Source of the DNA: Dehalococcoidia bacterium
Lineage (GTDB): Bacteria > Chloroflexota > Dehalococcoidia > Lucifugimonadales > QGNO01
Reading direction: 5' to 3'
NCBI GenBank assembly: GCA_034422935.1
Contig: DAOUJH010000004.1
Span: 5,269-69,268 of the forward strand
Length of the DNA stretch: 64,000 nt
In this document: piece after piece, positions 1,993 to 32,034 of the stretch
Numbering within the stretch: position 1 is the stretch's first letter
Layout of the letters: every line of letters starts with the position of its first letter
The notes under the pieces: generated by a model
What the model saw: the letters and a program-made list of their open reading frames with translations, nothing else
Database searches by the model: none
What the model was told of the DNA's origin: nothing
Program-made: the position numbers and the translations under genes

Positions 1993-3777
1993 ATGAAAAG
2001 GAGTGAGATGTCTGTTCAGCGTTACTCGGTAAACCAGCACCCTATCGAAACACTATTAACTTGGATCAAATCTGAAGAGATCGCTATTCCTGAGATTCAG
2101 CGCCCTTTCGTCTGGAATGCGGCAAAGGTGCGTGACTTTATCGACTCGCTTTATAACGGCTATCCCGTCGGATATCTCATTGCTTGGCGAAATCCTGGAG
2201 TCCGCCTGAAGGACGGGACTCAATCAACCGGTAAGCGCATCTTGATTGACGGTCAGCAGCGTGTGACTGCCCTACTGGCTGCTTTGCTAGGGGAGCAGGT
2301 AGTTACCAAAGACTACAAGCGGACGAATATCTCTATAGCCTTTCATCCTGGGGAAGAACGCTTTGAGGTGACCAACGCCGCCATCCGTCGGGATCGGGGA
2401 TGGATTGCTGATATCTCCACTTGCTTTGCTCCTGACACGAAGATACTTCAGCTATTGGACGAGTACTGCAACGCGAACCCAGGCTTCAACAGAGACAACG
2501 TATACGAGTGCATGGAGAGCCTTAGAGGTATCCGCAATAACTCCTTGGGCCTTATTGAGTTAAACGCCGAACTAGACGTAGAGACAGTCGCAGAAATTGT
2601 CACGCTGAACGCAGCGGACTTCGCCATGTCCAAGATGGCCGCCAGCGAACAGTACGGTGGCCATCTGCTCCGAAAGTGTATCGACTACTTTTGCCACTTG
2701 TCGGTCGCGCCGGAAGATTACAGCGACTTGGCCAAGGATTATGACTTCGCATCTACGAAATACTTCCATGCAATGGACTGGCTTAAACACGAAAAGAGCG
2801 ACCTCTATGACCCCTCATATACTGACATGCTTAGGGTAGCCTCCACATCAAAGTTTAAGCGTGGACGTTTAGAAGACCTGGTTGCTCTGCTCTCAGGGCG
2901 CAATTTTGAGAAACGCACCTTTGAGGAAGCGATTGCAGAGGAGTCCTTCCATAAGCTCGAAGATGGGATTCTGAGCTATATGAATGAAACCAACTTCAAA
3001 AGGTTCCTAATGATATTGCGATCGGCAGGGTTCATAGATGCTTCATTGATCAGGTCCCAGAATACCGTGAATTTTGCCTATATCCTTTTCTTGATACTGC
3101 GTGAGCAACACGTGGTTCCGGAACAAATCGAGACCTTAGTACGCCGGTGGTTTGTAATGTCAGTCCTTACCGGTAGATACACAGGCGCTCCAGAAACCGC
3201 ATTCGGTTTAGATGTCCGCAACATTGACACACAGGGCGCAAGCGCGTATCTGGACACTATTGAACAAGCGGAGCTTTCGGATGCATTCTGGAGTGTCGGA
3301 CTTCCTCAGCAGATGGACACCTCGGTCGCCAGTAGTCCCTATTTCAACGTTTTTCTGGCGAGCCAGGTAAAGAGTAACGACAACGGATTCCTGTCAAAGG
3401 ACATTACGGTGCAGAACCTCATTGAAGGTCAGGGGCACGTACATCATGTATTCCCTCGTAATTATCTACAAAAAGAGGGACTGTCGAGGAGTAGATACAA
3501 CCAGATCGCCAATTATGTGGTAATGCAGAGCGAGATCAACATCGCCATAGGAGATAAACCTCCAAAGAGGTACTTCACCGAGTTATGGGAACAGTGCAGC
3601 AATAAGAAACCCCGTTATGGTGGAATAACTGATGCCGACCAGTTGCAAGCTAACTTTACTGCCCACTGTATCCCACGTGAGATGGAGGCTAAAGTCGTAG
3701 AAGATTACGACGAATTCCTAAAAGAACGGAGAATGCTCATGAGTGCCAAGATACGGGACTACTACCGGACACTCTAG
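1993..3777 (+). CDS. DUF262/DUF1524 protein, GmrSD/SspE-like putative type IV (modification-dependent) restriction enzyme
   Basis: The N-terminus has the ParB-like DUF262 motif '[34 protein letters not shown] ... LIDGQQR'. The C-terminus has a His-Me/DUF1524-like motif '[12 protein letters not shown] ... [10 protein letters not shown]'. The gene is visibly AT-richer than its neighbours. Confidence 0.75.
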
Positions 3778-3817
3778 CGTTGGCGACAAACCTTGCGAAC
3801 ACTTGGGGCCAGATGCC

Positions 3818-6800
3818 TTACACCGTCAGCTTTCGATACAGCGTGGGCAACCGGGCCGGAAGGGCGCTGATGTCGTCCAGCACCTCATAGCCCATGTCTT
3901 GGCACATGGTCGCCAGGTAATCGTGTCCGGCCTTGTCCACGGTCAAGCAGAACGGCGTGATGTTCTTTCTCCTGGCCTCCGTCAGCGCCATCTTGGTGTC
4001 GTGGACCGCGTACTCCTTTTCCACGCCCTCGCGGCTGTATCCCCTGTCCTGCGGTCGGCCGTCGCTGATCAGGAACAGCAGCTTGGTGCGGGAGTCCTGC
4101 TTGTCCAGCTTGGTAACGGCGTGCCTTATAGCGGGGCCCATGCGCGTGGCGTGCAGCGGCGTAACGCGGTCGATTCTCTTCTTGACCCGCTCCGATAGTT
4201 TTTCGTCTATGTCCTTGATGGTGTAGAACTCAACGTTCTCCCGCCCGTAGCCGGAGAAGCCGTATATGCCGTACACGTCCCCTATTGTTTCCAGGGCGTT
4301 GATGAGCAGCACCAGTCCCTCTTTCTCAAGGTCTATTATCCGCTTGTAGCTGCGTTTGTGGCCCTCTAGCCTTCTGCTGCGCAGCCAGGCCATGTACTCC
4401 ACCGGATCGTCCGGCGCATCCCAGCTGTCTCGCCTTGTATCGTCTATCGACTCCGCCGTGGATGCGCTCATGTCCAGCAGGAACACCACCGAAACGTCTC
4501 GCTCCACCTTGTTGCGGCGCCAGTGCACCTTATCGGACGGCGACTCCCCGGCCCACTTGTCTATGATCGACTCTATGACCGCATCCAGATCGAAGTCTTC
4601 GCCGTCGGGCAAATGTTTGGTCTTGCGGTACACCTCTGGGGCCAGCATCTCGAACTGCCGCCGGATCCGGCTCACCAGGCTTGAATGAGTGCGCAGGGTA
4701 TCCGTAAAGAACTGCGAATCTCCCTCTGGCACCCACTTCTCGCGCACCACGCACCACCGCGGCTTGTAATCATCGGCGCGGAAGTCCCATTCGTCGTACA
4801 GGTAGGTCTGCGGCTCCCCAATCTCGATGGGGTACCCCTCTTCGTCCACGTGGGGAATCATCCCCTGCCCTTTCCCCGAATCGGGGGTCTGTCCGCTGCC
4901 TATCTCCTGCACGATGTTCTGAATCAACGCGCCCAGGTTTTCGGGTGAAGCCTCCTCCGACCCTTCCACCATGTCCAGTTCCGCGCTGTTGGCCAGTAGT
5001 TGCTCCAACTCCTCCTTGGATAGGTTGGAAGCGCCTTCCTGGCCCTGTGTTTGCCCTTGCTGCATTCGCAGCGCCGACAGCAGCTGGCTCAGCTCAGGTT
5101 TGAAGTCGCCTCGGTAGTCCACCTGCGGCGGCGATTCGTACTCCTCCTCGTCGTCCCCCGTCTGCAGTTCGCTGGGCGTGGAAGCCTCGTCGGAGCCTTG
5201 GATCTCCTCCAAGATGCTCTCCAACTCCTCTTCCGTCATCTCATTGTCCTCTAGGTCAAGCTCAGTCCACTCCTCCTCCGGCAGCTCCACGTTCGGCATC
5301 TCCGCGATGAGGTCGTATATGCGTATGGTTGCCTCTGTGGAGTCCTCGACGGAGGCGTCCTTGACAAGGATCCGTTTGAAAATCTTTGCCGCCGCCTTGG
5401 CTCGGTCCAGGTACTGCTTCGGCGCGGGCAGTCCCTTGTTCTGCTGCAGGCTCAGCCGCACCAGGAACTCCACCATGGCTTCTTGCAGCGGCATCTCCTC
5501 TATCTCCGGCCTAGTCTGCAGGGCGTCCTGCTGCACCTGCGTGTAGGCTGGGGCAAGGCCGGGATACTCGCTGCGGATCCTGTGGTCAAGCCTGCCGTCT
5601 TCGACTACGGTGAATATGTCCAGCGCCAAACGGCGATTGTCGAAAAGGTTGAAGAAACGCTCCATGTCGGTGAGAAACGCCCGCTCGACCGCGCCGGAAT
5701 CCTCGCCAATCAGTGGCAGTTGCGCCGGAACGGGGGCCTCCTTGCCGTTCGTCTGCCCGGCTCTTTCCCGGCGGTTGTCGGCAAACAGCGACGACGGCCT
5801 ATCGAAGACGAAGTCAAAGCTGCCAAACTCTATGTGAGCCACCTGGTGCGTGCACACGACCTTGAACAGCGAGAAGTTACTCTCCTTGCTGTCGTACTTG
5901 TCCATTTCGCCCGGCAGGTAGACGACGCTTCCTTCTGTGGTTGCGTGGTACTCAGAGACCCACCCGATATTCTTGGACAGCAGCTCTCTGGCGGGAGCAA
6001 TCTCCACTCCGGCCCCGGCCAGCGCCCGGCAGTACATGCCAAGCAGCCCTTTGATCTTGTCCAGCTCAATTGCCGTGGACAGGCTCTCCAGTACCGCCTC
6101 CGATGTGTTGGACTCGATTTTGAAGTAGGCCAGCCCCCCGTCAGGGTTCTCGCTAAGGATGGTCACTCCCCTATCGAACCATGCTCTAACCTGGTCCTGG
6201 CTCATCCTTTCCAGCAGTTCGGGGGCGCTCTTTAGGAACGCCGCCACAGCGTCGTGCGACATGGGCAACAGCACTTCCGCCATGCTTAGCAGACGGCTCT
6301 GCCCGGGGCCGTCTACCCGCGACATTGGCCCAACCGTCTCATTGATGAACAGGCTGATGTTGGATATCCCGCCGCGCACCATAGCCGCCGATATATCCAA
6401 GAAGCGGCCCCGGTGGTCCTTGTGCAGCGGCGCTACTATCTTGGAGGCCGATTCGAAGCTGCTCTTCACTTCCCGCCAGTTGCTTTCGGCTACCACCTGC
6501 GACAAGTTGATCAACGACATCATGCCGTCGCCGAATTGCGGCAACACCTGCTGTCCCAGGACAAGGCAGTCCGCCGCTACTTCGGTTGACTTCTGCGAAA
6601 GTGAATTTATCAGCTGCGCAAATTTGCCCAGCTCCTGGAATGTCATGTATTCCAGCATCTCGGAGCTGACTTCAAAGAACTTGGCGGCCAAGGCCCCGGA
6701 CTTCCAGGTCCCCCTGTACAATCCCCGGCCAAGATTTGCCCATTCTTGAACGTATTCCGGCTTCAATATCCCGGCGCTCTTTGTGCTGGCCCTGAAGAAC

Positions 6801-10262: not shown

Positions 10263-11621
10263 TTGACCAGTAGATTACGCAGCCTCCCCAGCATTGACGC
10301 CGTCTTGCAGCAAGAGCAGGTGCGGCAACTGGTTGCGGTCTACTCCCATGAAGCCGTCGTCACCGTTATCCGTCGTCATCTGGACGCGATTCGCAACTCC
10401 CCTTCAGGCGGTGAACCCGTTCCCGACCTCGACCGTATAGTGGAAGGCGTGTGCCTGGAAGCGTCCCGCCGTTGGACGACCGGCCCCCGTCGAGTCATCA
10501 ACGCCACCGGGGTCGTCCTGCACACCAACCTGGGCCGCGCTCCACTGAGCAAACCGGCCCTCCAGGCCATGAACGACGCTGCTAGCGGCTACTCCGACCT
10601 GGAGTTCGAACTCCGGCGAGGGCAGCGTGGATCAAGACAGGCCCACGTCAGTTCGCTGATAACCCAGGTCAGCGGAGCGGAGGCGGCGCTGGTGGTGAAC
10701 AACAACGCCTCCGCCGTAATGCTTGGCCTTGCCGCCCTGGCCCGGGGAAAAGAGGTCATAGTGTCTCGCGGTGAAGCGGTGGAGATAGGCGGCGGCTTCC
10801 GCATTCCCGGCGTACTTGCTCAGAGCGGGGCGCGGCTTGTCGAAGTGGGCGCCACCAACCGCACCTACCTATCCGACTACGAATCCGCCATCGGTGAAGA
10901 GACCGGCGCCATTCTCAAGGTGCACGCCAGCAACTTCCGCGTCACTGGCTTCACGCACTCGGTGGAGATCGCCGAGCTGGTGGCCCTGGGCAGGGAGCGT
11001 AATCTGCCCGTCCTCCACGACCTCGGTTCCGGCTGCCTGCTGGACGTGTCCATGTTCGGCCTGGCCTATGAACCCACCGTGCAGGACAGCATCTCCGCGG
11101 GATGCGGGCTGTCCTTCTTCTCCGGCGATAAACTCCTCGGCGGGCCGCAGGCTGGCATAATCGCCGGCAGCAAGGACCTTGTGCAAAAGCTGTCCGCACA
11201 TCCGCTGGCCCGCGCCGTGCGAATAGACAAGCTCAGCTTGGCCGCGCTGGCCGCCACGCTTCTGCACTACCTCAAAGAGGAAGCGGTCACGGAGATCCCC
11301 GTGTGGCGCATGATCTCCGCCTCCGAGTCCCATCTGAAGGAGCGCGCCCAGGCGTTGCAGAGCGCCATTGGCGCTATAGCCTCTATCGCTCCGGGACGCT
11401 CGGCCATTGGCGGGGGCAGCCTCCCCGGAGAAACCCTGCCCACCTGGCTTGTCGCGCTCGACGGCAACCCGGACGCGATGGCGGACGCTCTCCGCCAAGC
11501 CGATCCGCCCGTAGTTGCCCGCATAGAAGACGACAGGCTGGTGCTGGATCCGCGCACCGTAATGGCAAATGAAGAGGACGCTGTGGTGGAAGCGGTCAGG
11601 CTGGCGGCGGGAACGGGATGA
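10263..11621 (+). CDS. selA: L-seryl-tRNA(Sec) selenium transferase
   Basis: TTG start. 'VINATGVVLHTNLGRA' and the PLP-lysine motif 'FSGDKLLGGPQAGII' match E. coli SelA. Confidence 0.9.
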   Translation: MTSRLRSLPSIDAVLQQEQVRQLVAVYSHEAVVTVIRRHLDAIRNSPSGGEPVPDLDRIVEGVCLEASRRWTTGPRRVINATGVVLHTNLGRAPLSKPALQAMNDAASGYSDLEFELRRGQRGSRQAHVSSLITQVSGAEAALVVNNNASAVMLGLAALARGKEVIVSRGEAVEIGGGFRIPGVLAQSGARLVEVGATNRTYLSDYESAIGEETGAILKVHASNFRVTGFTHSVEIAELVALGRERNLPVLHDLGSGCLLDVSMFGLAYEPTVQDSISAGCGLSFFSGDKLLGGPQAGIIAGSKDLVQKLSAHPLARAVRIDKLSLAALAATLLHYLKEEAVTEIPVWRMISASESHLKERAQALQSAIGAIASIAPGRSAIGGGSLPGETLPTWLVALDGNPDAMADALRQADPPVVARIEDDRLVLDPRTVMANEEDAVVEAVRLAAGTG

Positions 11622-14460: not shown

Positions 14461-15549
14461 TCACTCACGCCGCAGTATCAGGCGTGCGAACACTGCAGCA
14501 GCAAAGACGCTTGCAAGCCCCTGGATGATGATGAGCGTAGTGCGCCTACGGGGTGACGAAGCGATGCCCCCCAGAGCATCGCGGACACGCGGTATCGCCA
14601 TACTGATCACCGGAGCGGATGGCTGGTCCAGTTCTGGCTGTACCAGTTGCGGCACAGACGCTGTGCCTGACGGCTGAGGCGTTGTTGCGAGAGCACCAAG
14701 CGTGGGCTCCACGGTAGGTGTGGGCGTGGGCGTGGGCGTCGGTTCAGGCGTATTTGTGGGTAGCGGCACCAGCGTTGGAGTTGGTGTTGGCGTCGCCGTG
14801 GGGGTCGGCGTAGGAGTTGGGGTTGGAGTGGACGTGGGAGTGGGAGTTGGGGTTGGAGTGAGAGTTGGTGTAGCCGTAGCCGTGGGTGTGGGCGTGTCGG
14901 GCGGAGGCGGAGGTGGTGATGGAGTTGGCGTGTTTGGAGGCGGAGTTGGCGTGTTCGGAGACAGAGTTGGGATAGGAGTCGGCGTGTTTGTTGGGGTTGG
15001 AGTAGGCGTGAAAGTGGGTGTATTGACGGGAGGAGGAGGAGGAGGTGGTGGTGGTTGTGGCGGTTGTGGCGTGGAACCATCCCTATCCAGCACCCGCACC
15101 GTTCTCCCTGAGGGGCTTCCTACGGTGTACTCCGCAAATGTGGAGTTGATGGCGATTCGGACGGTTCGATTTGTGTTCACCACTCCGTCGTCATTCGCCA
15201 CATCTACCTGGTAGCTCACAACGTCGGTCGTGTCACCCGGATGGAAGGCAAAGGCGATTAACACATCGGCGTCCTCACCCTTCGAAGAGTCCCATACTAT
15301 GATGCCGCCTATGAGTCTCCCTCCTGTGAGACCTGGATCGCCTACACTGACAGGTGGGGAGATTCCTAGTGTGACGTGTACGGAATTCCCTTCCAGAACC
15401 TGTGAGGACGGCTCGACGCTAATCAGCCTGACTACGGGCAATGCTTGCCCTCCCGGTCTGTGATCCGGCTGCACCAGCAGAACAACGACGGCAATCCCGA
15501 TGACTAGGAGGATTCGTTTGGCGTTAAGAAGCTTCAGAAAACGCATCAA
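14461..15549 (-). CDS. membrane-anchored surface protein with a Pro/Thr-rich linker
   Basis: N-terminal TM/signal '[14 protein letters not shown]' and a beta-rich domain (Calx-beta-like impression, low certainty). About 110 aa of PT/PP low complexity follow, then a C-terminal TM '[21 protein letters not shown]'. Confidence 0.6.
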
Positions 15550-15712
15550 TTACCGCGGTCGACCTCCGTAGTTAGGCGTTTGCAAGCACTCCATAAACGG
15601 TTCAGGGAATGCTCCGTGTCTAGTATAGTGATAGCCTAGAGTAAGCCGCTAGTGGTTACCGTGCCAGGTTATGCAATCTGAGCCCGAGGCGTAACGAGTG
15701 AAGATGTATTAG

Positions 15713-15721
15713 TGATATAAT
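15713..15721 (+). promoter_or_regulatory. candidate extended -10 promoter element (TGATATAAT) giving a leaderless or near-leaderless mRNA
   Basis: 'tgatataat' ends 7 nt before the ATG at 15729. There is no Shine-Dalgarno sequence between them and no good -35. Confidence 0.4.
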
Positions 15722-15728
15722 GGCGTAG

Positions 15729-16328
15729 ATGTTCTCTTCCTCAATTAAACGGCGAACCGTTGTCCTTGCAGCTCTTCCCTTGCTGTTTAGCCTAGCTTGC
15801 ACTAGCGAAACAGCGACTCCTACCAATGAACCGGTACCGACTCCGAATGCTACGACGCCTGCTGCAACCGATCCCCCTACCCTCGCAACGGGGAATCGGG
15901 TTGGCGACTTAGCGCCTGACTTCACCCTGACCGAGGTGTCCACGGATCAGCCCGTACAGTTGGCCGAACTGACGGGACAGGGACGTCCCGTAGTCCTATA
16001 CTTCTTCACCACATGGTGACCGACTTGTCGCACCGAGTTACGGTTGCTAAAGGATGTTTACCCGGACCACCAGGAGTCTGTAGATTTCTACGCGCTGGGC
16101 ATTGATCCGACCGAGGGTCTGGGCACCCTGGTCGGGTACAGAGACGGACAGGACTACCCCTGGCCGGTTGCCAAGGCGCCTGCCGCCATGCTGCCGGAAT
16201 ACAATGTCTTGGGGCAGCCAGCCAAGTTAGCCATAGATGGCGATGGGGTAATAGTGTTCCGTGGAGGATACAGCGTAGAGTCTGAGGAGACATGGCAGCG
16301 GGTATTCCGTGAGCTTTCCCAGGCCTAG
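15729..16328 (+). CDS. TlpA/ResA-like thiol:disulfide oxidoreductase lipoprotein, candidate selenoprotein (Sec encoded by TGA 16017-16019)
   Basis: Track ORFs 15729-16019 and 16044-16328 are in the same frame and no other stop lies between them. Read-through gives 'VVLYFFTTW-U-PTCRTELRLLKDVYPDHQESVDFYALG', which is W-[C/U]-x-x-C of the thioredoxin fold. The N-terminus is a lipoprotein signal 'KRRTVVLAALPLLFSLAC'. Confidence 0.8.
16030..16047 (+). other. candidate bacterial SECIS upper hairpin
   Basis: 'GCACCG-AGUUA-CGGU(U)GC' is a 6-bp stem with a bulged U and a GU-containing apical loop. It starts 11 nt after the UGA. It was folded by eye only. Confidence 0.35.
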
Positions 16329-16385
16329 CGCCAGTGCATAGATGCATACCTGCCCTGGCTATAGCCAGGTTGTGTGGATAACGTC

Positions 16386-18179
16386 ATGCTCAGACTTCTT
16401 AGCGTCACCAACTTTGCCACCATAGAGCGGATTGAAATGGAGTTGGCGCCCGGTCTTAACGTGTTGACAGGAGAGACCGGTGCCGGCAAGTCGATCATCG
16501 TGGATGCGCTGAGTCTTCTCCTGGGAGGACGCGCCGACGGCGGCATGGTTCGCTCTGGGGCGCGCCAGTCCAGAGTAGAGGGCATCTTCCTGCTCAACGG
16601 AGATATCGCTCAGAAAATCAAGGTTGCCCTGGATGAGTACGAGATTGACAGTAGCGAAGAGGAACTGATTCTCGCCCGCGAAGTCAATCTGGATGGACGC
16701 AATACGTGTCGTATAAACGGGCGAATCATACCTCTCCGGCTGTTGAACTCCCTAGCCGAACATCTGGTAGACATCCATGGCCAGAATCAGCACCTATCCC
16801 TGTTCCGTGTACGTGAGCACATGGACATACTGGACAGGTATGGTGGGCTATGGCAACTCCGGACACAGGTAGCAGGGCAAGTCCGCCAGCTTTTGGAGGT
16901 GCGCCGAGAGCTGGACATGCTTGCCAGGGAAGCTCAGGACATTGCCCAACGGATGGATTTCCTGAGGTATCAGGTGGCTGAGATCGGCGCTGCCAATCTT
17001 CGCCCGGCTGAAGATGAAGAACTGTCCCTTGAGCGGGACCGGGCCGCCAACGCGGAGCGAATTATCGAACTGTCCGACCACGCTTATCGTGTGCTATACG
17101 ATGGCTTCGACCGGCAAGAATCGGTCATGGACCTTGTGGGACAGGTGGCCAGGGACATTGCTCAGCTGGAGCAGTTGGACCCCTCTTTGAGCCGGGACCT
17201 CCCTTCGCTGGATGCCTTGACTCACCAGATGGACGAATTGGCGCGTACGCTCCGGAGCTATCGTGACAGCATCGAGTACAGCCCGGAACGTCTTCAAGAG
17301 CTTGAGGAGCGTTTGGAATTGATCAGGGGCCTCAAGAGGAAGTACGGCAGTACGATAGAAGAAATATTGGCTTTCGGTGAAAAGGCCTCCCAGGACTTGG
17401 AGAGGCTGCATCAGAGTGAAGAGCGTACGGAGGAGTTGAACTCCCAAGAGGTGGAGCTTCAAGTGCAGGTGGGCGGACTGGCAGGCCAGCTCTCCGAGGC
17501 CCGGCGACACGTCGCCAAGCGGCTGGCCTGCGCCATCGAGGAGGAGGTCGCTGATCTGGCCCTGGCACATACAGAGGTGCAGGTGGACATCCGTCAATCA
17601 GACTCGGAGGACGGTGTGCCGGTTCAGACCGGCGAATCGGGCCCGCAATCTCCGCATTTAGATGGAGACGGTGTCAGGCGCCTCTCCTTTGACGGCACGG
17701 GTATAGACTCCGTGGAATTCTTGGTCTCGCTGAACCTGGGCGACCCGCCACGGCCCCTGGCCAGAGTCGCCTCCGGGGGAGAAGCCGCCAGGCTCATGCT
17801 CGCTATAAAGACTATCCTGTCGACCGCCGACAGGATTCCAATCCTGGTTTTCGACGAGGTAGATGCAGGCGTAGGAGGTAGAGTTGGAGGTGTCTTGGGT
17901 CAGAAGCTATGGGAACTGTCCAAGAACCACCAGGTGCTGTGCGTAACCCATCTCCCGCAGATAGCCTGCTACGCGGACCTTCATGCCAGGGTTACCAAGC
18001 TTGCCTCGGATGATAGGACTGTGACCGCGGTGGAGACTCTAACCGATGAGGCCAGGGTGAGGGAGCTCAGTCAGATGCTCGGTTCCGACAGCGGTGTAGC
18101 CCGAAGCAATGCCCTAGAGATGCTGGAGCAGGCGGCGACATGGAAGGAAAGCCCAAGAAAAGTCAGCCAGCGTGAGTAG
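16386..18179 (+). CDS. recN: DNA repair protein RecN
   Basis: 'MLRLLSVTNFATIERIEMELAPGLNVLTGETGAGKSIIVDAL', a long coiled-coil middle, and C-terminal 'LVFDEVDAGVGG'. ATG at 16386 is preferred; the track starts at GTG 16374. Confidence 0.9.
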   Translation: MLRLLSVTNFATIERIEMELAPGLNVLTGETGAGKSIIVDALSLLLGGRADGGMVRSGARQSRVEGIFLLNGDIAQKIKVALDEYEIDSSEEELILAREVNLDGRNTCRINGRIIPLRLLNSLAEHLVDIHGQNQHLSLFRVREHMDILDRYGGLWQLRTQVAGQVRQLLEVRRELDMLAREAQDIAQRMDFLRYQVAEIGAANLRPAEDEELSLERDRAANAERIIELSDHAYRVLYDGFDRQESVMDLVGQVARDIAQLEQLDPSLSRDLPSLDALTHQMDELARTLRSYRDSIEYSPERLQELEERLELIRGLKRKYGSTIEEILAFGEKASQDLERLHQSEERTEELNSQEVELQVQVGGLAGQLSEARRHVAKRLACAIEEEVADLALAHTEVQVDIRQSDSEDGVPVQTGESGPQSPHLDGDGVRRLSFDGTGIDSVEFLVSLNLGDPPRPLARVASGGEAARLMLAIKTILSTADRIPILVFDEVDAGVGGRVGGVLGQKLWELSKNHQVLCVTHLPQIACYADLHARVTKLASDDRTVTAVETLTDEARVRELSQMLGSDSGVARSNALEMLEQAATWKESPRKVSQRE

Positions 18180-21507: not shown

Positions 21508-22512
21508 TCACTGTTCTAACCAGTGTTCCTTTCCTGTGACCAGGTTAATAGAGCACTGCGGGATCCCTTTGAACATATCTATACCGATCGGTCGCTTGGC
21601 AAAGGGGTTGTGATGGATATAGATATTGGAGGAGTCAGTATTGTATGGGTGGCAGAAGAGCACCGCAGAAACGTCGGAATATCGGTGGGTGCCATCCTTC
21701 TCTCTGATTGTAAATATTCCATTATCCGGGTCTTGCCAATCCCTGTCACCGTATAAAGCCACAAGATCATCATCATCGCTTGCGAACGAAACGTGATATG
21801 GCAGCTTGGGCCATACCGCAATCACGTAAGGGGTGAACATTTCACCGTACTTGTGAGCTTTCTCTATGATTGCTTTACGAACCGGATTACCGATGTCCAC
21901 TTCGATAGCCTGGCTGACAGTGGCACCCACATCCGCAGATGGGTTTGGCTTGGTGTCCAATAGCACCGTCACTTCCAATGAATAGATTTGGCCTTGATGT
22001 TCCCCCTCAACCAAAAACTCCTGAAGCATTTCAGATTCTGAAGCCCTGATCTCTATCTCTCTTCCAATTCGATTATTCGGTAGACTAGGTAACAAATCGG
22101 ACATAGGATGAATCAGGACCGTACGTTTGAGCTTGCCTCTAAGGTCAGACATCAGTTGCATAAGGCGACGGTCTTGCTGTGTTTCGGACTCGACGCCAAG
22201 CACCGTTCTAGCTTCGACTATCACCGTACGGTTCCCACTGGTTAGACGGAAGTCCGGCTTATTCAGAGTACTGGGCAACTCAGGTTCTATTTCTATTTCC
22301 CACCCCCACTTCTTGAAGAAATCGAAGAGGCAGATTTCAAGTCGAGCAGACGAGTGCGAGTGCTCTAACTTACTCTTGAGCCTACCCTCCCAGATTGACC
22401 TGTGCGGCTCTGGAACTCTGGCGAGTTGCCGTAACACTTCTTCGCGGAGCGCCAGAAATTCGGGGTTATCTCCAGACAAGTCCGTCCAGTTGTGAATGCC
22501 ATACTTTGTCAT
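21508..22512 (-). CDS. hypothetical protein with a PD-(D/E)xK nuclease-like N-terminal motif
   Basis: 334-aa ORF in an AT-richer islet. 'NKPDFRLTSGNRTVIVEARTV' fits a D...E-x-(K/R) restriction-endonuclease-like core. I recognise nothing else. Confidence 0.5.
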   Translation of the reverse strand: MTKYGIHNWTDLSGDNPEFLALREEVLRQLARVPEPHRSIWEGRLKSKLEHSHSSARLEICLFDFFKKWGWEIEIEPELPSTLNKPDFRLTSGNRTVIVEARTVLGVESETQQDRRLMQLMSDLRGKLKRTVLIHPMSDLLPSLPNNRIGREIEIRASESEMLQEFLVEGEHQGQIYSLEVTVLLDTKPNPSADVGATVSQAIEVDIGNPVRKAIIEKAHKYGEMFTPYVIAVWPKLPYHVSFASDDDDLVALYGDRDWQDPDNGIFTIREKDGTHRYSDVSAVLFCHPYNTDSSNIYIHHNPFAKRPIGIDMFKGIPQCSINLVTGKEHWLEQ

Positions 22513-22685
22513 CGGTCAATATCTAGTTAATGATGAAGTCTAGCTCCTCGCCAGTAGTGCTTAGCCAGTACTTGGTTACTCTTGCTAGCCATGTCTTCCT
22601 GCGCATGTCGGTAGCCAATAGATTGATCTACGGGAGCTATAATAGTATATCTCTAAGTAATCGACGCTTGCGAAGGAGTAAGCAT

Positions 22686-22940
22686 ATGACGAGTAAATAC
22701 AAGCCTCTCTACGACTATCTTATAAAGAAACTCCAAAATGGATATACATTTTGGCATACTTCCTTCGAAGAAGTGGAAACTATCATTGATGCTTCTCTAC
22801 CACCTTCAGCGCGAAAATACCGAGAGTGGTGGTCAAACAATGACTACTTTGGGCGTCAATCCTGGGCTTGGTTACATGCAGGCTGGATGGTATCCACGGC
22901 GGAGATGGAGTCCGAAACCGTACTGTTCCGAACAGCTTGA
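22686..22940 (+). CDS. small hypothetical protein (84 aa)
   Basis: An AAGGAG Shine-Dalgarno sequence lies 7 nt before the ATG at 22686. 'KYKPLYDYLIKKLQNGYTFWHTSFEEVETIIDASLPPSARKYREWWSN' resembles a small domain I recall from mobile or defence contexts. This is unverified. Confidence 0.5.
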   Translation: MTSKYKPLYDYLIKKLQNGYTFWHTSFEEVETIIDASLPPSARKYREWWSNNDYFGRQSWAWLHAGWMVSTAEMESETVLFRTA

Positions 22941-22982
22941 CGGCGCTCAAGTATGTAAAGTACCTCACGAATCGGAGGGGGC

Positions 22983-23333
22983 ATGTTTGATTGGCTGATT
23001 GCAGGTAAGCTAGAGGAAGTCTACCGAAAGGGGAAGTCCAAGGGGTATCAGGAAGGTTGGGCTGAGTGGGCGAACCTGGCATCAGATACCCGCTACTGTG
23101 AAAATCCCCATTGTATGAGAATCAAGTCGGAGAGGTGGGAGGACCATAAAAAGGGATATAAAGAAGGATATTCCGAAGCCTGTGAGGACATACGCGACAT
23201 ACTACAGCATGGCGTCCATTATAATCAGATAACAGCGATAGGCGGGATTTGCGAATGTGAACTCTGCCAGATAGTCAACGAATACAAGAATCAAATAGTG
23301 AACGTGATACGGGGACACTACTACGGGCGGTAA
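22983..23333 (+). CDS. hypothetical Cys/His-rich protein (116 aa)
   Basis: ORF only. It lies in the AT-richer islet and shows no recognisable motif. Confidence 0.4.
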   Translation: MFDWLIAGKLEEVYRKGKSKGYQEGWAEWANLASDTRYCENPHCMRIKSERWEDHKKGYKEGYSEACEDIRDILQHGVHYNQITAIGGICECELCQIVNEYKNQIVNVIRGHYYGR

Positions 23334-23499
23334 AGACAGTACAGGCAGCATGGTTCTGGGAAAGCTGTTAGGGAGTCGTATACCTATCTCTTGAGCTTGT
23401 CATTAGTTTGTCTCAGAACAGCTATACTTGTTTTTTAGTGTTTAGATGCAGTAGTCATGTATCGCTTGGAATTCTTCTAGGCTTGCTATACTAAAGTTT

Positions 23500-23769
23500 A
23501 TGATCCCTTCCCAGCTTCACCTCCGCCGTCTGCCTGTAGAAGAGGCCATGAGCAGGCTGGACAAGTACCTGGACCAGGCGTTCATGGCCGAGCTGCTTAG
23601 GGTACACATTGTCCATGGCAAAGGCACCGGCGCCGTGCGAAACGCCGTCTGGCAACACCTGGAAGCCCACCCATTGGTCAAGAGTTTCGGTTTCGCCGAC
23701 TACGGCGAGGGCGACTATGGAGTAACCGTGGTTGAAATGGAAAGCCGCCAGCTCAACCCTCCGCAGTAA
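23500..23769 (+). CDS. Smr-domain protein
   Basis: 'LHLRRLPVEEAMSRLDKYLDQAF ... VHIVHGKGTGAVRNAVWQHL' matches the Smr/MutS2 C-terminal domain pattern. Confidence 0.75.
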   Translation: MIPSQLHLRRLPVEEAMSRLDKYLDQAFMAELLRVHIVHGKGTGAVRNAVWQHLEAHPLVKSFGFADYGEGDYGVTVVEMESRQLNPPQ

Positions 23770-23821
23770 ACCCTGATATGATTCGTAGGTGTAAGCCGCT
23801 AATAGCCTGTAGGGATTACCC

Positions 23822-25195
23822 ATGGCCCTCTTTGAACATCAACGACAGCAAGCAGAGAGACGTAACGCCCCCCTGGCCGCGCGCATGCGCCCGCGCAATT
23901 TCGATGAGCTTGTCGGCCAGGAGCACATTGTTGGATCTGACAAAGTGCTCCGACGCAGCATTGAAGCCGACCGGGTGCCCTCCATGGTTCTCTGGGGGCC
24001 GCCCGGTTCAGGCAAGACCACCCTTGCCCTGATAATCGCCTCCGTTACCCAGTCCCACTTCGAGCAGGCTTCCGCCGTTACTTCCGGCGTTGCCGACCTA
24101 CGGCGCATCGTTGGGGAAGCCAGGGACCGTCTCGGCATGACTGGCCAGCGCACCATACTATTCGTGGATGAAATTCACCGCTTTAACAAGGCGCAGCAGG
24201 ATGTCATACTGCCCCACGTGGAGTCCGGCACCGTCACCTTCATTGGCGCCACCACCGAAAATCCTTCCTTTGAAGTCATCTCTCCGTTGCTATCCCGTTC
24301 CCGTGTTTTCCCAACCCAGGCCCTCACTGAAGAGCACATCGGCCTTATCGTCGACCGTGCCTTGAATGATCCCGACCGAGGTATAGCGGAAATGCGCCCT
24401 TCCCTCGAGCCCGATGCTCGCAGCCTTCTGATGACCGTCTCTAATGGCGACGCTCGAATCGCCCTCAACGCCATCGAACTGGCGGCCACCGCCACCGCAC
24501 CGGACGACAGGGGCGAACGTACCATCACCCTGACCACTATGGAAGACGCCCTACAGCAGCGTGCCCTGCTCTACGATAGGGCCGGAGACCAGCATTACGA
24601 CACAATCTCCGCCTTTATCAAGTCGGTCCGCGCCTCCGACCCCGACGCCGCCATCTACTGGCTGGGCCGCATGGTCGAAGCGGGCGAAGACCCCCTGTTC
24701 ATCGCCCGGAGGCTCGTAATTCTCGCCTCCGAGGACGTGGGCATGGCTGATCCCCAGGCGCTCACCGTCGCCGTCGCTGCCCAGCAGGCTGTCCACTTCA
24801 TCGGTATGCCGGAGGGGCGCATCCCCCTAGCCGAAGCGACCGTATACCTGGCCACGGCGCCCAAGAGCAACACTGCCTATATGGCCCTCAACAAGGCGAT
24901 GGAGGACGTGAGCATGAGCCGCAACGAGCCGGTTCCCTTGCACTTACGCAATGCCGTTACGTCTATGATGAAGGGTATGGGCTACGGCAAAGACTATAGA
25001 TACGCCCATGAGTTCCCCGAACACTTTGCCGGCCAGAAGAATCTACCGGCCAACCTGGAGGGACGGGTCTACTACCAGCCCTCCACTCAGGGGTACGAAA
25101 AAGTAGTTGCCGAACGCATCAAGCGCTGGTGGGGAGACCGCGGAAACAGAGGGGGACGGCCAGTATCTGATGACGACCATTCGCAGCAGCTATAG
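23822..25195 (+). CDS. rarA: replication-associated recombination protein A (AAA+)
   Basis: 'RPRNFDELVGQEHIVG ... LWGPPGSGKTTLA ... LFVDEIHRFNKAQQD' plus the MgsA C-terminal region. Confidence 0.9.
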   Translation: MALFEHQRQQAERRNAPLAARMRPRNFDELVGQEHIVGSDKVLRRSIEADRVPSMVLWGPPGSGKTTLALIIASVTQSHFEQASAVTSGVADLRRIVGEARDRLGMTGQRTILFVDEIHRFNKAQQDVILPHVESGTVTFIGATTENPSFEVISPLLSRSRVFPTQALTEEHIGLIVDRALNDPDRGIAEMRPSLEPDARSLLMTVSNGDARIALNAIELAATATAPDDRGERTITLTTMEDALQQRALLYDRAGDQHYDTISAFIKSVRASDPDAAIYWLGRMVEAGEDPLFIARRLVILASEDVGMADPQALTVAVAAQQAVHFIGMPEGRIPLAEATVYLATAPKSNTAYMALNKAMEDVSMSRNEPVPLHLRNAVTSMMKGMGYGKDYRYAHEFPEHFAGQKNLPANLEGRVYYQPSTQGYEKVVAERIKRWWGDRGNRGGRPVSDDDHSQQL

Positions 25196-28827: not shown

Positions 28828-30270
28828 ATGACGAAACCCAACTTCAAGAACCGCACTCTTTGGACGGGCGACAACCTGGACATCATGCGGGGTCTCAACT
28901 CTGAGACCGTTGACCTGATCTACCTGGACCCGCCGTTCAACTCCAACCGGGACTACGCAGCGCCGATAGGTTCAGCGGCTGCAGGCGCGGCCTTCAAGGA
29001 CACCTGGACACTTTCCGACGTAGACCTAGCGTGGCACGGGGAGATAGCGGAGGCCAACCCTGCCCTATACCGCGTGATAGATGCGGTACGGGAGGCGCAT
29101 GGCAAGGGGATGCAGTCCTATCTCATTATGATGGCCGTCCGGCTTTTAGAGATGAAGCGATTGTTGAAGTCTACAGGCAGCATTTACCTACACTGTGACC
29201 CGACGGCGAGCCACTATCTGAAACTGCTAATGGATACGGTGTTTGGAGCAAGACAGTTTTGGGCGAATATCACTTGGAAACGCACTTCGGCGCACAACGA
29301 CAGACTCTTTGGTTCCGAGTCTGACACTATTCTCATGTACGGCGGTAGTAAACAGAATCGCGACGCCGTGCTGGTACCACATACCGAAAAAAACCTTGCG
29401 TCAAAGTACCGGTACGAGGATGACAATGGGAGATACCGGACTGGTGACCTAACTGGCGCAGGCACGAGTGAAGGGGAATCGGGTTCAGCATGGCGCGGTT
29501 TCGACCCAAGCGCTATTGGACGCCATTGGGCGGTTCCAAAAACAGGCGCATACGCTCGGTATCTCGATAAGCTGTTGCCTGGCTATCTCAGTATTAACGG
29601 CGTCCACGAACGACTTGACTCACTGGATGAGGCGGGGATGATTCACTATTCCTCAAGAGGTGGCATGCCAGCGCTAAAGCGTTACCTGCCGCCAGATGCA
29701 GGTCGCCTTCCTGGCGACTTGTGGACGGACATTGATGTTGTCAACGCCCAAGCTAAAGAGCGAATAGGCTACCCTACCCAGAAGCCCCTGGCGCTCTTGG
29801 AGCGCATCATCAAGGCCAGCAGCAACGAGGGAGATGTAGTGCTTGATCCGTTCTGCGGTTGTGCCACGGCTCTTGTAGCGGCGGAGAAACTGGAACGCGA
29901 GTGGGTGGGCATTGACATATCGTCCAAGGCTAGGGATCTCGTCAAAGTCCGTATGGGGAAGGAGCTTGGCCTGTTCAGCATCGGAACGGTCTACCGTGAC
30001 GACGTTCCGATGCGTACTGACCTTGGCGAGTTGCCCCATTACAAGACGCACAAGCACACGCTGTTTGGAAAACAGGAGGGGCACTGTGCCGGGTGCAAGC
30101 ACGACTTCCCGTTTCGCAACTTCACCGTTGATCACATCGTGTCGCAGTCAAAGGGCGGCACCGACCATATAGACAACCTTCAACTGCTATGTAACGCCTG
30201 CAACTCCATGAAGGGAACCAAGACCCAAGAGGAGTTCCTGGTGGCGCTGAAGCAGGCAGGGATTGGGTAG
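28828..30270 (+). CDS. beta-class N6-adenine/N4-cytosine DNA methyltransferase fused to a C-terminal HNH endonuclease
   Basis: Motif IV 'LIYLDPPFNS' is N-terminal and motif I 'VLDPFCGCATALVAA' comes later, which is the beta-class order. The C-terminus 'HCAGCKHDFPFRNFTVDHIVSQSKGGTDHIDNLQLLCNACNSMKG' is a CxxC...DH...N...CxxC HNH finger. Confidence 0.85.
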   Translation: MTKPNFKNRTLWTGDNLDIMRGLNSETVDLIYLDPPFNSNRDYAAPIGSAAAGAAFKDTWTLSDVDLAWHGEIAEANPALYRVIDAVREAHGKGMQSYLIMMAVRLLEMKRLLKSTGSIYLHCDPTASHYLKLLMDTVFGARQFWANITWKRTSAHNDRLFGSESDTILMYGGSKQNRDAVLVPHTEKNLASKYRYEDDNGRYRTGDLTGAGTSEGESGSAWRGFDPSAIGRHWAVPKTGAYARYLDKLLPGYLSINGVHERLDSLDEAGMIHYSSRGGMPALKRYLPPDAGRLPGDLWTDIDVVNAQAKERIGYPTQKPLALLERIIKASSNEGDVVLDPFCGCATALVAAEKLEREWVGIDISSKARDLVKVRMGKELGLFSIGTVYRDDVPMRTDLGELPHYKTHKHTLFGKQEGHCAGCKHDFPFRNFTVDHIVSQSKGGTDHIDNLQLLCNACNSMKGTKTQEEFLVALKQAGIG

Positions 30271-30319
30271 GTAGTTGGTGAGACAAGCACTATCGGCAAA
30301 CGAGAGATAGCGGCCTCTC

Positions 30320-30874
30320 TTAGAAGCTCTCGGAGCTAAGCCCCTGCCACACAGTTCTTTGGCGAGTGCTTGCCCAGCGTATACACTCGGCGACCAACTC
30401 GCACGTTTCCAAATCCTCTTCCTTGTATAGGTAAAGGTCATGATACGCTTGAACTGTGTTGCTGATTAGGTTTTCCCCTGGCTTATAATGTTCGGCAGGG
30501 AATAGCACTCCTGTCTTGAAAATAATCTCGGGTATGCTGACAAAGTGACCAAGCTCAACTATAGCTCCGGTAGCATTCTCCACGTTCAATACTATTACAA
30601 GATCAACGGCAGTATTGCTGAGCAACTGCCGTTCCTGCACTACCACAGGCAGAAAGGGGATATCTTCTACACGATCCTCTGGGAAAAACGTTTCGTGGCC
30701 AGTTTCCTGTAGCGCGCGCGCAATTTGGTGCCGCTTTTGGCTACCTCTGTTACCTTCATCGTCTAGGTGTGGGCCAAGAACGGCTATACTAAGTCGGATT
30801 GCCTTCACTTGAGCATCAATTTCTGCCCACTGTTCAGCGAGCAGTTGTTCAAAGGCACCAAGTCTATCGGTCAT
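30320..30874 (-). CDS. hypothetical protein with a nucleoside 2-deoxyribosyltransferase-like (NDT/Rossmann) motif
   Basis: 184 aa. 'LSIAVLGPHL' is a beta1-Gly-like start. 'VDLVIVLNVENATGAIVELGHFVSIPE' resembles the NDT-family D-x-G-T-x-x-E-x-G catalytic-Glu motif. It overlaps the upstream gene by 11 nt. Confidence 0.55.
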   Translation of the reverse strand: MTDRLGAFEQLLAEQWAEIDAQVKAIRLSIAVLGPHLDDEGNRGSQKRHQIARALQETGHETFFPEDRVEDIPFLPVVVQERQLLSNTAVDLVIVLNVENATGAIVELGHFVSIPEIIFKTGVLFPAEHYKPGENLISNTVQAYHDLYLYKEEDLETCELVAECIRWASTRQRTVWQGLSSESF

Positions 30875-31352
30875 TATTGACGATAGATTCGATAAAGGCT
30901 TGCCCAGCTTCCGTGATGTAGATTACATTGGCTCCAATCGCGCAAAAGTTTGCGGCTGTCAGCCTTGCCAGTGGGATGCCACTTTGACAGGGGTTGAATT
31001 CCGCGAGCCTAATGCTGGTTTCCTGATATAATCTTGCCAAGAGCAAAGTAGCGTTCTCATCCCCAAGAACCTCGGCGGCCTTACGCCGAAAGTGGTTGTT
31101 GGCATTGTTTAAACGAGTGCCTAGATCGTCAAGCAGTCTCTTGGGCTTATCACTGAAGCCTACAACGCCCCAAGCCGTATCCTGTTGAAGGCTGTGTAGC
31201 CAATGCCGGAGGGACGCTTTTAAGTGACTTGGAGGGCCATAGCTGGGAGACGACGAATCTAATGGCCAAGCTGGCTGTTGGCGTGCGTCGCCGAACCAAA
31301 TAATTGTAGCCTCGGGTGGTTGAGATACATCAACTGCTGGCACCTTCCTCAC
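30864..31352 (-). CDS. hypothetical protein (162 aa), middle gene of the overlapping triad
   Basis: ORF overlapping both neighbours (23 nt and 11 nt). The C-terminal ~60 aa look helical or winged-helix-like, but this is a low-certainty impression. Confidence 0.45.
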   Translation of the reverse strand: MRKVPAVDVSQPPEATIIWFGDARQQPAWPLDSSSPSYGPPSHLKASLRHWLHSLQQDTAWGVVGFSDKPKRLLDDLGTRLNNANNHFRRKAAEVLGDENATLLLARLYQETSIRLAEFNPCQSGIPLARLTAANFCAIGANVIYITEAGQAFIESIVNNDR

Positions 31353-32034
31353 CTCCTAAGCGAAGTACGAATTGCGACGAGATCGTTTGGACATAACTAA
31401 ACAACTGCGATACTGACTTACTGCCTATTCGAACTACAGGCTCCAACTCTACTAAGTGCGAAACCGAATCAGCGTCCTCGCTTATTGTGATGCGATACTC
31501 GATTCGGCTATCCACCCTACGGCTGAACTGCGCCTCCTCGATATGGGTAGCTCCGTTGGGATCGCCCATGATTAGCGGAATTGGGAAACGAGTCCTTGAC
31601 TGATAGCGTTGTACATCGTATTCAAATTCAGCGTAGCAGGTAACCTTTATAGTTCCAAACAGACGCTCAGAAATCTCCATCAGAGCGGAAACTGGTCTTA
31701 TGGCTTTAGGGGGACGTCGTAGGTTATCGGCGGCAGCGATGCTATCAAGCCACAGGCCGATAGACAGAGTGTCGTCCGCATCGACTGACTTTGACAGCCT
31801 GCCCACAGCTTGGTGGGTGGCTCCCCTAAACCTGTATCTAGAGCCAAAGAACGCAAAGACTACGGATTGCTTATTTTCATAAGACGCTGTCCGGTCTATG
31901 AGCGCCTGAATCTCTGGGCCGTTGGCACTGGGCAGAGTTGCCTTCCCATGTATTCTGAAGGAAACACAATTTTGACTAGCCAAGTTGAGTCTCATAAGCC
32001 GCGATGTATCCTCTCGTACATTGTACCAGCCCAA
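31330..32034 (-). CDS. hypothetical protein (234 aa), first gene of the overlapping triad
   Basis: ORF only, with no recognisable motif. Its composition is AT-richer than the core genes. Confidence 0.45.
   Translation of the reverse strand: MGWYNVREDTSRLMRLNLASQNCVSFRIHGKATLPSANGPEIQALIDRTASYENKQSVVFAFFGSRYRFRGATHQAVGRLSKSVDADDTLSIGLWLDSIAAADNLRRPPKAIRPVSALMEISERLFGTIKVTCYAEFEYDVQRYQSRTRFPIPLIMGDPNGATHIEEAQFSRRVDSRIEYRITISEDADSVSHLVELEPVVRIGSKSVSQLFSYVQTISSQFVLRLGGEEGASS

Follow-up and report, generated by a model that had tools for sequence, protein, structure and literature searches.

The subject of this report is a gene on the forward strand of a 64,000-nucleotide stretch of DNA (the window) from contig DAOUJH010000004.1 of a Dehalococcoidia bacterium (assembly GCA_034422935.1). 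We read positions 15729–16328, with a confidence of roughly nine in ten, as one selenoprotein gene in which selenocysteine (Sec, U97) takes the place of the active-site cysteine of a thioredoxin fold, and in which the in-frame UGA is recoded by way of a conserved RNA hairpin. The combination of TGA, continuing frame and hairpin recurs in 45 homologous genes, which far exceeds what chance could produce.

One gene across an in-frame UGA

From the ATG at 15729 to the TAG at 16326–16328 the coding sequence (199 codons including Sec97) is a single frame, and on reading and translating it the sole interruption found is the TGA at 16017–16019. A mechanical list of open reading frames (ORFs) breaks the gene into 15729–16019 (96 residues) and 16044–16328 (94 residues, with a TTG start), the frame being shared by the two. 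An earlier annotation of the window made from its letters alone (the sequence-only reading) had already joined this pair into one gene, and its coordinates, frame, lone TGA and the context YFFTTW-[TGA]-PTC-RTEL were all correct. In the longer context, ...VVLYFFTTW-[TGA]-PTCRTELRLL..., the codon stands at the first cysteine of the W-C-x-x-C motif of thioredoxin folds. With cysteine put at the TGA, the Pfam family AhpC-TSA (PF00578) matches residues 58–176 (E 2e-15, 57.3 bits against a gathering score of 26) and Redoxin matches residues 58–130 (E 7e-12); both matches cover codon 97, and therefore one thioredoxin-fold domain spans the TGA. Neither half amounts to a complete thioredoxin fold; the sequence-only reading had held that neither is a plausible protein alone.

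A search of the joined sequence against 5.8 billion proteins returned no full-length form above 34% identity; its best matches were truncated N-terminal fragments, and nine close homologues (P0001–P0008 and P0014) all end in ...FFTTW or ...FFATW, i.e., at the residue before the TGA. Distant full-length relatives in the same search carry W-C-x-x-C. The contigs that encode the homologues had the split pair every time, with an ORF of 93–94 residues called 25 nt past the truncated one, and reading through them gave 15 genes, all of which have the TGA and then run on in frame with conserved sequence. When one genome for each GTDB species was scanned, 28 further loci came to light in 21 Dehalococcoidia/Chloroflexota metagenome-assembled genomes (MAGs), at 39–96% identity and with TGA in every one; two more paralogues, in L033 and L034, were found later. 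The Sec genes found number 45, from the 21 MAGs and from metagenome contigs, and the codon is TGA in 45 of 45; TAA, TAG and cysteine codons were found in none.

The frame beyond the TGA behaves as coding sequence. Among 42 distinct sequences the entropy at the first, second and third codon positions was 0.65/0.55/1.08 upstream of the TGA and 0.60/0.42/1.32 downstream of it (codons +10 to +30), and this downstream periodicity means that the part past the TGA is translated in the same frame. Biologically, then, the homologues do not end at the tryptophan: gene callers truncate all of them at the TGA, and the frame downstream is conserved.

A lone in-frame stop in a single sequence resembles a point error or a recent nonsense mutation, and a cysteine codon (TGC or TGT) mutated or misread to TGA would make this gene a pseudogene or a product of faulty sequencing or assembly. 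To that explanation we assign a probability close to nil, given the identical TGA in 45 genes from at least 21 MAGs and several metagenomes, down to 39% identity, the intact periodicity with no second stop or frameshift, and the implausibility of a systematic error common to different projects and platforms.

The other possibility raised by the split is that the gene is what the callers say it is, i.e., that a 96-residue lipoprotein fragment and a 94-residue protein begun at TTG 16044 are made as two polypeptides. It is how every database entry is annotated, and the prediction that standard callers would split or truncate the gene was true of all public copies examined. The Pfam domain nevertheless spans both halves, TTG 16044 lies inside the stem of the hairpin described below, and the equivalent codon is one that is unable to start translation (CAG, TCG, CTC, CGG) in 14 of 42 homologues, which argues against a separately translated second protein. 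Moreover, the 24 nt between the two called ORFs are the most conserved coding stretch of the gene and include the resolving cysteine, and the orthologues with cysteine at the Sec position are single chains. Two separate products are accordingly scarcely credible, and we return to the one-chain selenoprotein.

Cysteine forms of the family

The column occupied by the TGA is a cysteine column. Distant relatives at loci L036–L040 (Omnitrophota, Deltaproteobacteria, a spirochaete and Evansella) have TGC or TGT at the Sec codon, and proteins P0009–P0016 align with cysteine at the Sec column. An exhaustive HMMER search of the post-TGA half against 1.84 billion representatives gave 206 matches, many of them fragments of 77–99 residues, i.e., other split Sec genes. 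Full-length cysteine orthologues at 39–47% identity were also among them (P0018, P0019, P0021, P0024, P0030 and others); these have W-C-P-x-C at the Sec position and share the lipobox and the C-terminal motifs of the window protein. The expectation that cysteine-containing homologues would align across the TGA was thus borne out, and the family comprises Sec and cysteine forms, as most selenoprotein families do. An idea that the family was confined to Sec forms was dropped when this search returned the full-length cysteine orthologues.

Two codons of the active site can be named in the window: the UGA of residue 97 (16017–16019), aligned with the first cysteine of WCxxC in the cysteine homologues, and the TGT of the resolving residue, Cys100 (16026–16028), where the cysteine is invariant and is encoded by TGT in 9 of 40 genes and by TGC in 31 of 40. 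The two residues between Sec and the resolving cysteine (U-x-x-C) differ among paralogues: PT, PY, PA, PN, PK, PP, PV, AA, GI and GQ all occur.

A conserved hairpin after the UGA

A hairpin at 16030–16047 of the forward strand is a strong candidate for the bacterial selenocysteine insertion sequence (SECIS; bSECIS for the bacterial type). Its stem is formed by 16030–16035 and 16041–16047 around the loop AGUUA at 16036–16040, so that the sequence reads GCACCG-AGUUA-CGG-U-UGC with one bulged U at 16044 or 16045. The first base of the hairpin is the 11th nucleotide past the UGA, and the loop begins exactly 16 nt past it. The core CCGAGUUACGG at 16033–16043 (CCG-AGUUN-CGG) is invariant.

An alignment of 33 non-redundant sequences, beginning 3 nt before the UGA, was used to assess the structure. 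The block CCGAGUUNCGG is invariant in it, and RNAalifold recovers the hairpin independently. Pairing holds in 96.5% of cells, compared with 9–57% when the 3' partner is slid. The pair that closes the stem below CCG/CGG (pair 19–31) is AU in 14 sequences, GU in 10, GC in 6 and UA in 2, and one shuffle in 500 reached the covariation score. Divergent members build the lower stem from other bases (GAG/CUC, CUG/CAG, CCG/CGG).

Codon usage, too, is constrained, and this evidence does not depend on pairing. Third-position entropy falls to 0.22 over the hairpin codons from 1.32 in neighbouring codons, a drop of about six-fold, and the codons over the hairpin are frozen: xCC in 40 of 40, GAG in 40 of 40, CGG in all 38 of the arginine codons, and the rare TTA in 33 of the 36 leucine codons. 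The tripeptide E-L-R encoded there varies freely in the cysteine forms. For a negative control, 80 metagenome loci encoding cysteine forms were fetched. None of the 20 subfamily-like cysteine genes, and none of the 81 cysteine genes overall, has a stem of 4 bp or more carrying a GU loop in the register of the hairpin; the AGUUN loop is present in 45 of 45 Sec genes. The bulged hairpin at 16030–16047 that the sequence-only reading had picked out is accordingly conserved, covarying and restricted to the UGA-containing forms.

Published criteria for a bSECIS are a loop of 3–9 nt, an upper stem of at least 4 bp, a G as the first or second base of the loop with G or U next, 16–37 nt between UGA and loop, and a minimum free energy (MFE) of at most -7.5 kcal/mol (PMC13188914 Fig. 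2). With a 5-nt loop, a stem of at least 4 bp (counted as 4 bp plus 2 bp beyond the bulge), a G at the second loop position followed by U, and a spacing of 16 nt, the window hairpin agrees with four of the five.

A second fold was considered. It is a 10-bp structure at 16018–16045 in which the region of the UGA takes up the 5' half of the SECIS by pairing, so that the SECIS hairpin is excluded; this alternative is the MFE fold in the window, and across homologues it can form in 86% of cells. It was rejected, as it has no covariation in the 33-sequence alignment and its pair 12–23 is broken in 16 of the 33.

Selenocysteine machinery and the genetic code

The gene for L-seryl-tRNA(Sec) selenium transferase, selA, is at 10263–11621 on the forward strand, and its earlier naming was confirmed by the TIGR00474 equivalog model (E 1.9e-169, 564 bits against a cutoff of 268). 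It ends 4.1 kb upstream of the ATG and starts 5.75 kb upstream of the TGA. The linkage is syntenic, with selA also upstream of the orthologue in locus L001, where the two are successive called genes some 430 nt apart, and in L003, which has the gene order of the window. Dehalococcoidia MAGs have been reported to encode 46–49 selenoproteins and are listed among the most selenoprotein-rich bacteria (PMC13326102).

The scan for machinery covered essentially all window ORFs of at least 150 residues, compared with NCBIfam or Pfam, and no selB or selD was among them. ARAGORN found no tRNA gene, and no tRNA-Sec, in the window (64 kb) or 34 related loci. As these loci mostly repeat a few syntenic neighbourhoods, the lack of any tRNA gene could be due to chance. 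As a separate observation, the best NCBIfam match of a LysR-family regulator at 46730–47665 (reverse strand) is the "selenium metabolism-associated LysR" model NF040786, at 167 bits, well under its cutoff of 250; it is probably a generic LysR protein.

UGA stop reassignments occur in some uncultured bacterial lineages, and it is to this precedent that one would appeal if UGA were a sense codon throughout this genome (Trp or Gly, codes 4 or 25) and the protein no selenoprotein at all. TGA is, however, the ordinary stop of 10 of 23 confident window genes, including selA, which is aligned to the end of its profile, and UGA is therefore not reassigned genome-wide. The in-frame TGA falls at a catalytic cysteine column, not at a Trp or Gly one, and a hairpin specific to UGA genes would be superfluous under such a code. 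In addition, among 104 frame pairs that a TGA interrupts with 45 or more open codons to either side, a redox-motif context is seen only at 16017, the others being judged by sequence context alone. We give a genome-wide sense UGA next to no weight, and hold to the decoding of this one UGA as Sec.

A hunt for other selenoprotein genes took in the window and, with a hairpin of this type downstream of other in-frame TGAs as the criterion, some 508 kb of Dehalococcoidia DNA; it turned up only the family's own paralogues at L033:5338 and L034:5340, the remaining matches being noise-like.

Protein architecture and probable function

The three-part organization that was first described, i.e., a lipoprotein signal, a Pro/Thr-rich (PT) linker and a thioredoxin fold split by the TGA, stands. 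A lipoprotein signal peptide forms the N-terminus, MFSSSIKRRTVVLAALPLLFSLAC, its lipobox cysteine being residue 24 (MFSSSIKRRTVVLAALPLLFSLA-C24, 15729–15800; cysteine codon 15798–15800). By sequence reading it fits a PROSITE PS51257-type rule, having K/R in the first seven residues, an uncharged h-region and F-S-L-A-C, and it conforms to the lipobox pattern [LIVMFWSTAG]2-[LIVMFYSTAGCQ]-[AGS]-C with the cysteine within residues 15–35, here as F-S-L-A-C24 with K7, R8 and R9. The motif LLLFS[IL]AC is kept in homologues, and the distant members L033 and L034 have an N-terminal transmembrane anchor in place of the lipobox. The linker occupies residues 25–53 (15801–15887) and ranges from about 30 to about 150 residues among paralogues.

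The remainder (15888–16325) is a TlpA/ResA-like thioredoxin-fold domain with the active site W-U97-P-T-C100, as indicated by Pfam, by profile matches to the Protein Data Bank (PDB) and by the alignment of cysteine homologues. The best PDB matches of the family profile were a TlpA-like protein (2ls5, 3e-18), ResA (4nmu, 4e-13) and CcmG/DsbE (4e-10), followed by surface thioredoxin-family proteins (2yp6 and 4hqz, at about 6e-7); some peroxiredoxin (Prx) and BCP entries were also matched. The best NCBIfam matches were ResA (50.6 against a cutoff of 170), DsbE (45.4 against 359 and 39.4 against 123), StoA and TlpA (20.5 against 230), every one far under its cutoff; the protein is therefore a member of the TlpA-like superfamily and the orthologue of no characterised protein. 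From family membership, its role is most likely that of an extracytoplasmic, membrane-tethered thiol-disulfide reductase.

A genuine selenoprotein might instead be a peroxidase or Prx-like scavenger with Sec as the peroxidatic residue. Sec improves reactivity towards peroxide, and such a function would sit comfortably with AhpC-TSA as the best Pfam match, with the Prx and BCP entries among the PDB matches, with a threonine at -3 from the Sec (T-T-W-U, compare the T-x-x-C motif of Prx), and with the replacement of the cis-proline by serine in about half of the family. The top structure and profile matches are to TlpA-like proteins, ResA and CcmG, not to Prx, the best NCBIfam matches are ResA and DsbE, and the motif W-U-x-x-C is that of TlpA-like reductases; nor does the protein show the marks of a typical Prx selenoprotein, i.e., P-x-x-x-T-x-x-U/C with no CxxC partner and Prx as the best structure. 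A peroxidase thus seems unlikely, although it is a serious proposal, and the thiol-disulfide reductase is preferred.

Weighing the evidence

A number of observations count against the reading of this gene as a hairpin-recoded selenoprotein reductase. Taken alone, the hairpin of the window folds at only -5.0 kcal/mol (18 nt) to -6.4 kcal/mol (28 nt), which is weak beside the bSECISearch threshold of -7.5; divergent copies of the hairpin reach -10.1 to -11.5 kcal/mol. The covariation comes mostly from one base pair and from register shifts in divergent members, the invariant upper stem being uninformative on pairing, and the MFE fold of the 45–64 nt past the UGA is not better than that of shuffles. 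No Rfam SECIS, tRNA-Sec or other family was matched in a scan of the window at gathering thresholds or in a scan of 15990–16110 at E ≤ 10. Neither the 64-kb window nor the fetched loci yielded selB, selD or a gene for tRNA-Sec. As to function, the cis-proline position, which is proline in the window (QPAKLAID aligned with LPTTFFID), is serine in 47% of the family, and the chemistry may depart from that of classical TlpA/ResA; no CcdA/DsbD-type partner or informative redox neighbour was found nearby among the window ORFs with NCBIfam or Pfam. Export, lipidation, the direction of redox flow, the substrates and selenium incorporation itself are put forward on indirect grounds.

Some of these points would equally suit read-through that has no need of SelB, in which the hairpin stimulates near-cognate decoding of the UGA (as Trp, Cys or Arg) and selenium plays no part. 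In other systems a structure downstream of a stop codon can favour its read-through; the hairpin of the window is of low stability, and no selB, selC or selD was seen in the window or among the fetched loci. Trp or Arg at the nucleophilic position of CxxC would, however, kill the activity, and were cysteine wanted a cysteine codon would serve better. The hairpin also follows the loop and spacing rules of a bSECIS, with G-U in the loop and 16 nt from the UGA (PMC13188914), the only known role of the syntenic selA is in Sec-tRNA synthesis, and the lineage is documented as Sec-using (PMC13326102). We regard such read-through as very improbable and retain SelB-dependent decoding of the UGA as Sec.

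Alongside the conserved frame, UGA, hairpin, selA, fold family and lipobox, all of which are observed, we infer Sec insertion and SelB binding, and the following sequence of events, based on the standard bacterial pathway, would account for them. The mRNA in the clade of the window is probably leaderless, driven by the extended -10 promoter that precedes the ATG by 7 nt. As the ribosome nears the UGA at 16017–16019, the hairpin at 16030–16047 would recruit SelB-GTP-Sec-tRNA(Sec), the Sec-tRNA(Sec) being made by the SelA encoded 4 kb upstream, and Sec would be inserted at the UGA in place of termination. The protein, to judge by its family, would be exported, lipidated at Cys24 and anchored on the outside of the cytoplasmic membrane. 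At that site the U97 selenolate would attack substrate disulfides or oxidised thiols, C100 would resolve the mixed intermediate to give an intramolecular selenenylsulfide, and a CcdA/DsbD-type membrane electron shuttle would re-reduce it.

Relation to known selenoproteins and reductases

A selenoprotein family of Prx-like thiol:disulfide oxidoreductases was reportedly described by Kryukov and Gladyshev in 2004. Prx-like UxxC selenoproteins (PF00578) are tabulated in several later papers (PMC13188914 Table 1, PMC2398784 Table 2, PMC1794560 Table 1), and "Prx-like 1" is abundant in ocean metagenomes, with 225 Sec sequences in the GOS selenoproteome (PMC2398784). Also listed in a 2026 review (PMC13188914) are a "Redoxin family protein" with UxxC, entry HEU0032618.1, and selenoproteins of a "UGC-containing TlpA family". 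The suggestion that an exported lipoprotein version in this lineage may not be annotated overstated its novelty, since UxxC selenoproteins of Prx-like and TlpA-like type are long known and abundant (PMC1794560, PMC2398784, PMC13188914) and the Dehalococcoidia are selenoprotein-rich (PMC13326102). The window gene resembles the Prx-like UxxC family in its PF00578 match above the gathering score, its Sec at the N-terminal cysteine and its cysteine homologues, and it would fall in that class by the defining features, PF00578 and UxxC, rather than by alignment with reference members. The U-G-C selenoproteins of TlpA/redoxin type likewise have a thioredoxin fold with Sec, whereas the motif in the window is U-x-x-C.

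The Chloroflexota subfamily differs from the Prx-like UxxC family in its lipobox and PT linker, in the motif ELRxLKxxYPxY after the active site, in its tandem arrays and in a SECIS core of its own that is invariant. What is specific to the subfamily is thus the lipoprotein anchor with its PT tether, the tandem arrays, the possible fusion seen in P0023, and a compact SECIS of fixed sequence and minimal spacing. More tentatively, and with the odds clearly against it, these genes might constitute a lineage-specific, undescribed Dehalococcoidia subfamily of surface-tethered Sec reductases, with tandem arrays of 2–4 genes, perhaps one Cys-Sec fusion, and a minimal fixed SECIS, CCGAGUUNCGG, 16 nt from the UGA. 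If that were so, the SECIS core could define the SelB recognition code of the Dehalococcoidia subfamily, and bacteria without an outer-membrane periplasm would be running a selenium-based extracytoplasmic redox system.

With ResA, CcmG (DsbE) and TlpA (4nmu, 1st9, 2b1k, 3k8n) the protein shares the thioredoxin fold, W-C-x-x-C and extracytoplasmic membrane anchoring; it differs in having Sec for the nucleophilic cysteine, in a cis-proline that is not conserved in the family, and in a gene context without cytochrome c maturation or copper-chaperone genes. Another parallel is provided by PDB entries 2yp6 and 4hqz, which we take to be the Streptococcus pneumoniae surface lipoproteins Etrx1 and Etrx2. 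These too have a lipoprotein-anchored surface TlpA-like domain in a bacterium without an outer-membrane periplasm (profile E of about 6e-7), but they are cysteine proteins linked to CcdA and MsrAB, none of which stands beside the genes studied here.

The bSECISearch model of the bacterial SECIS is said to go back to Zhang and Gladyshev in 2005. Like the bacterial consensus, exemplified by the SECIS of E. coli fdhF, the window element is a hairpin just 3' of the UGA within the coding sequence, with a small apical loop and a bulge below the upper stem. It departs from the consensus in being compact (6 bp plus a bulge), in a spacing fixed at the allowed minimum, in an 11-nt core that is invariant across 39–96% protein identity, and in matching nothing in Rfam.

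The find leaves the understanding of Sec decoding and of thioredoxin-fold selenoproteins unchanged. Its value lies in part in annotation, as all 45 copies are two nameless fragments in public annotation, which is a real annotation error; with the gene split in every copy, Dehalococcoidia proteomes and metabolic reconstructions miss a set of cell-surface redox enzymes. To a lineage known as a heavy user of selenium it adds a TlpA-like selenoprotein that is predicted to be exported and lipid-anchored and is often present in multiple copies. It also offers a natural experiment on SECIS evolution, with 45 Sec genes that have an invariant 11-nt core set against 81 cysteine relatives that lack it. 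Current bacterial SECIS models miss about 13% of bacterial selenoprotein genes (PMC13326102), and this 45-versus-81 dataset could help to refine them.

Promoter, tandem arrays and neighbouring genes

The sequence-only reading had proposed a leaderless start. An extended -10 element, TGATATAAT, lies at 15713–15721 on the forward strand, 7 nt before the ATG, a position that implies a leaderless mRNA; the distance is within the 6–8 nt expected of leaderless genes, and there is no Shine-Dalgarno sequence. In about 15 distinct homologues that are first in their arrays, exactly 7 nt (8 nt in L010) separate TGnTATAAT, or a one-base variant of it, from the ATG. A generic sigma-70 scan missed the TGATATAAT box because the box has no -35 match, and flagged only an internal chance match. 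Downstream tandem copies have AGGTG about 9 nt upstream of the ATG and no TATAAT box, and the distant members L031 and L035 have strong Shine-Dalgarno sequences. The claim thus survives for one clade only: a leaderless transcript is plausible in the clade of the window and is not a trait of the family. It has no obvious bearing on Sec insertion, because insertion happens during elongation.

Head-to-tail tandem arrays of 2–4 paralogues occupy one DnaJ...MFS neighbourhood: two copies in L002 (9315–10828), two in L007 (9549–11245), three in L004 (9171–11874) and four in L005 (9116–11716). Further tandem Sec copies lie in L033 (at about 5338 and 6127) and L034 (at about 5340 and 6127). Later copies in an array start about 12 nt past the previous stop and differ in linker and in dipeptide (PT, PY, PA, PN, AA, PP, GQ). 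Protein P0023 (274 residues) has a cysteine domain (FFFATWCPICR...), a PT linker and a second domain cut at ...FLFFAATW, and looks like an in-frame Cys-Sec fusion. In L005, at 15551–16600 and about 5 kb from the Sec array, a cysteine-type TlpA/redoxin gene (WCPPC, 182 residues) immediately precedes a gene of the CopD family, and may represent a TlpA-like paralogue connected with copper in that genome.

The divergent neighbour of the selenoprotein gene, at 14461–15549 on the reverse strand, encodes 362 residues, with hydrophobic segments at the N-terminus and in the C-terminal tail and a very long stretch rich in Pro and Thr, and has no Pfam or NCBIfam match. In the equivalent position of L003 (8725–9690, reverse strand) is a 321-residue ORF, also without a Pfam match. 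On the other side, between the stop of the selenoprotein gene and the recN start (GTG 16374), lies a perfect 16-bp palindrome at 16354–16369, with CCTGGCTA and TAGCCAGG as its halves. It is present only in the window and its closest relative, L008, with a 2-mismatch copy at 50040–50055; no run of T follows it, and it could be a terminator stem or an operator.

Farther afield in the window, three stretches (2001–4000, 22001–24000 and 30001–32000) have about 50% G+C in a background of 57–62%. The low-G+C stretches adjoin or contain an ORF for a GmrSD-type restriction endonuclease (1993–3777) and one for a DNA methyltransferase (28828–30270), and may be acquired defence islands.

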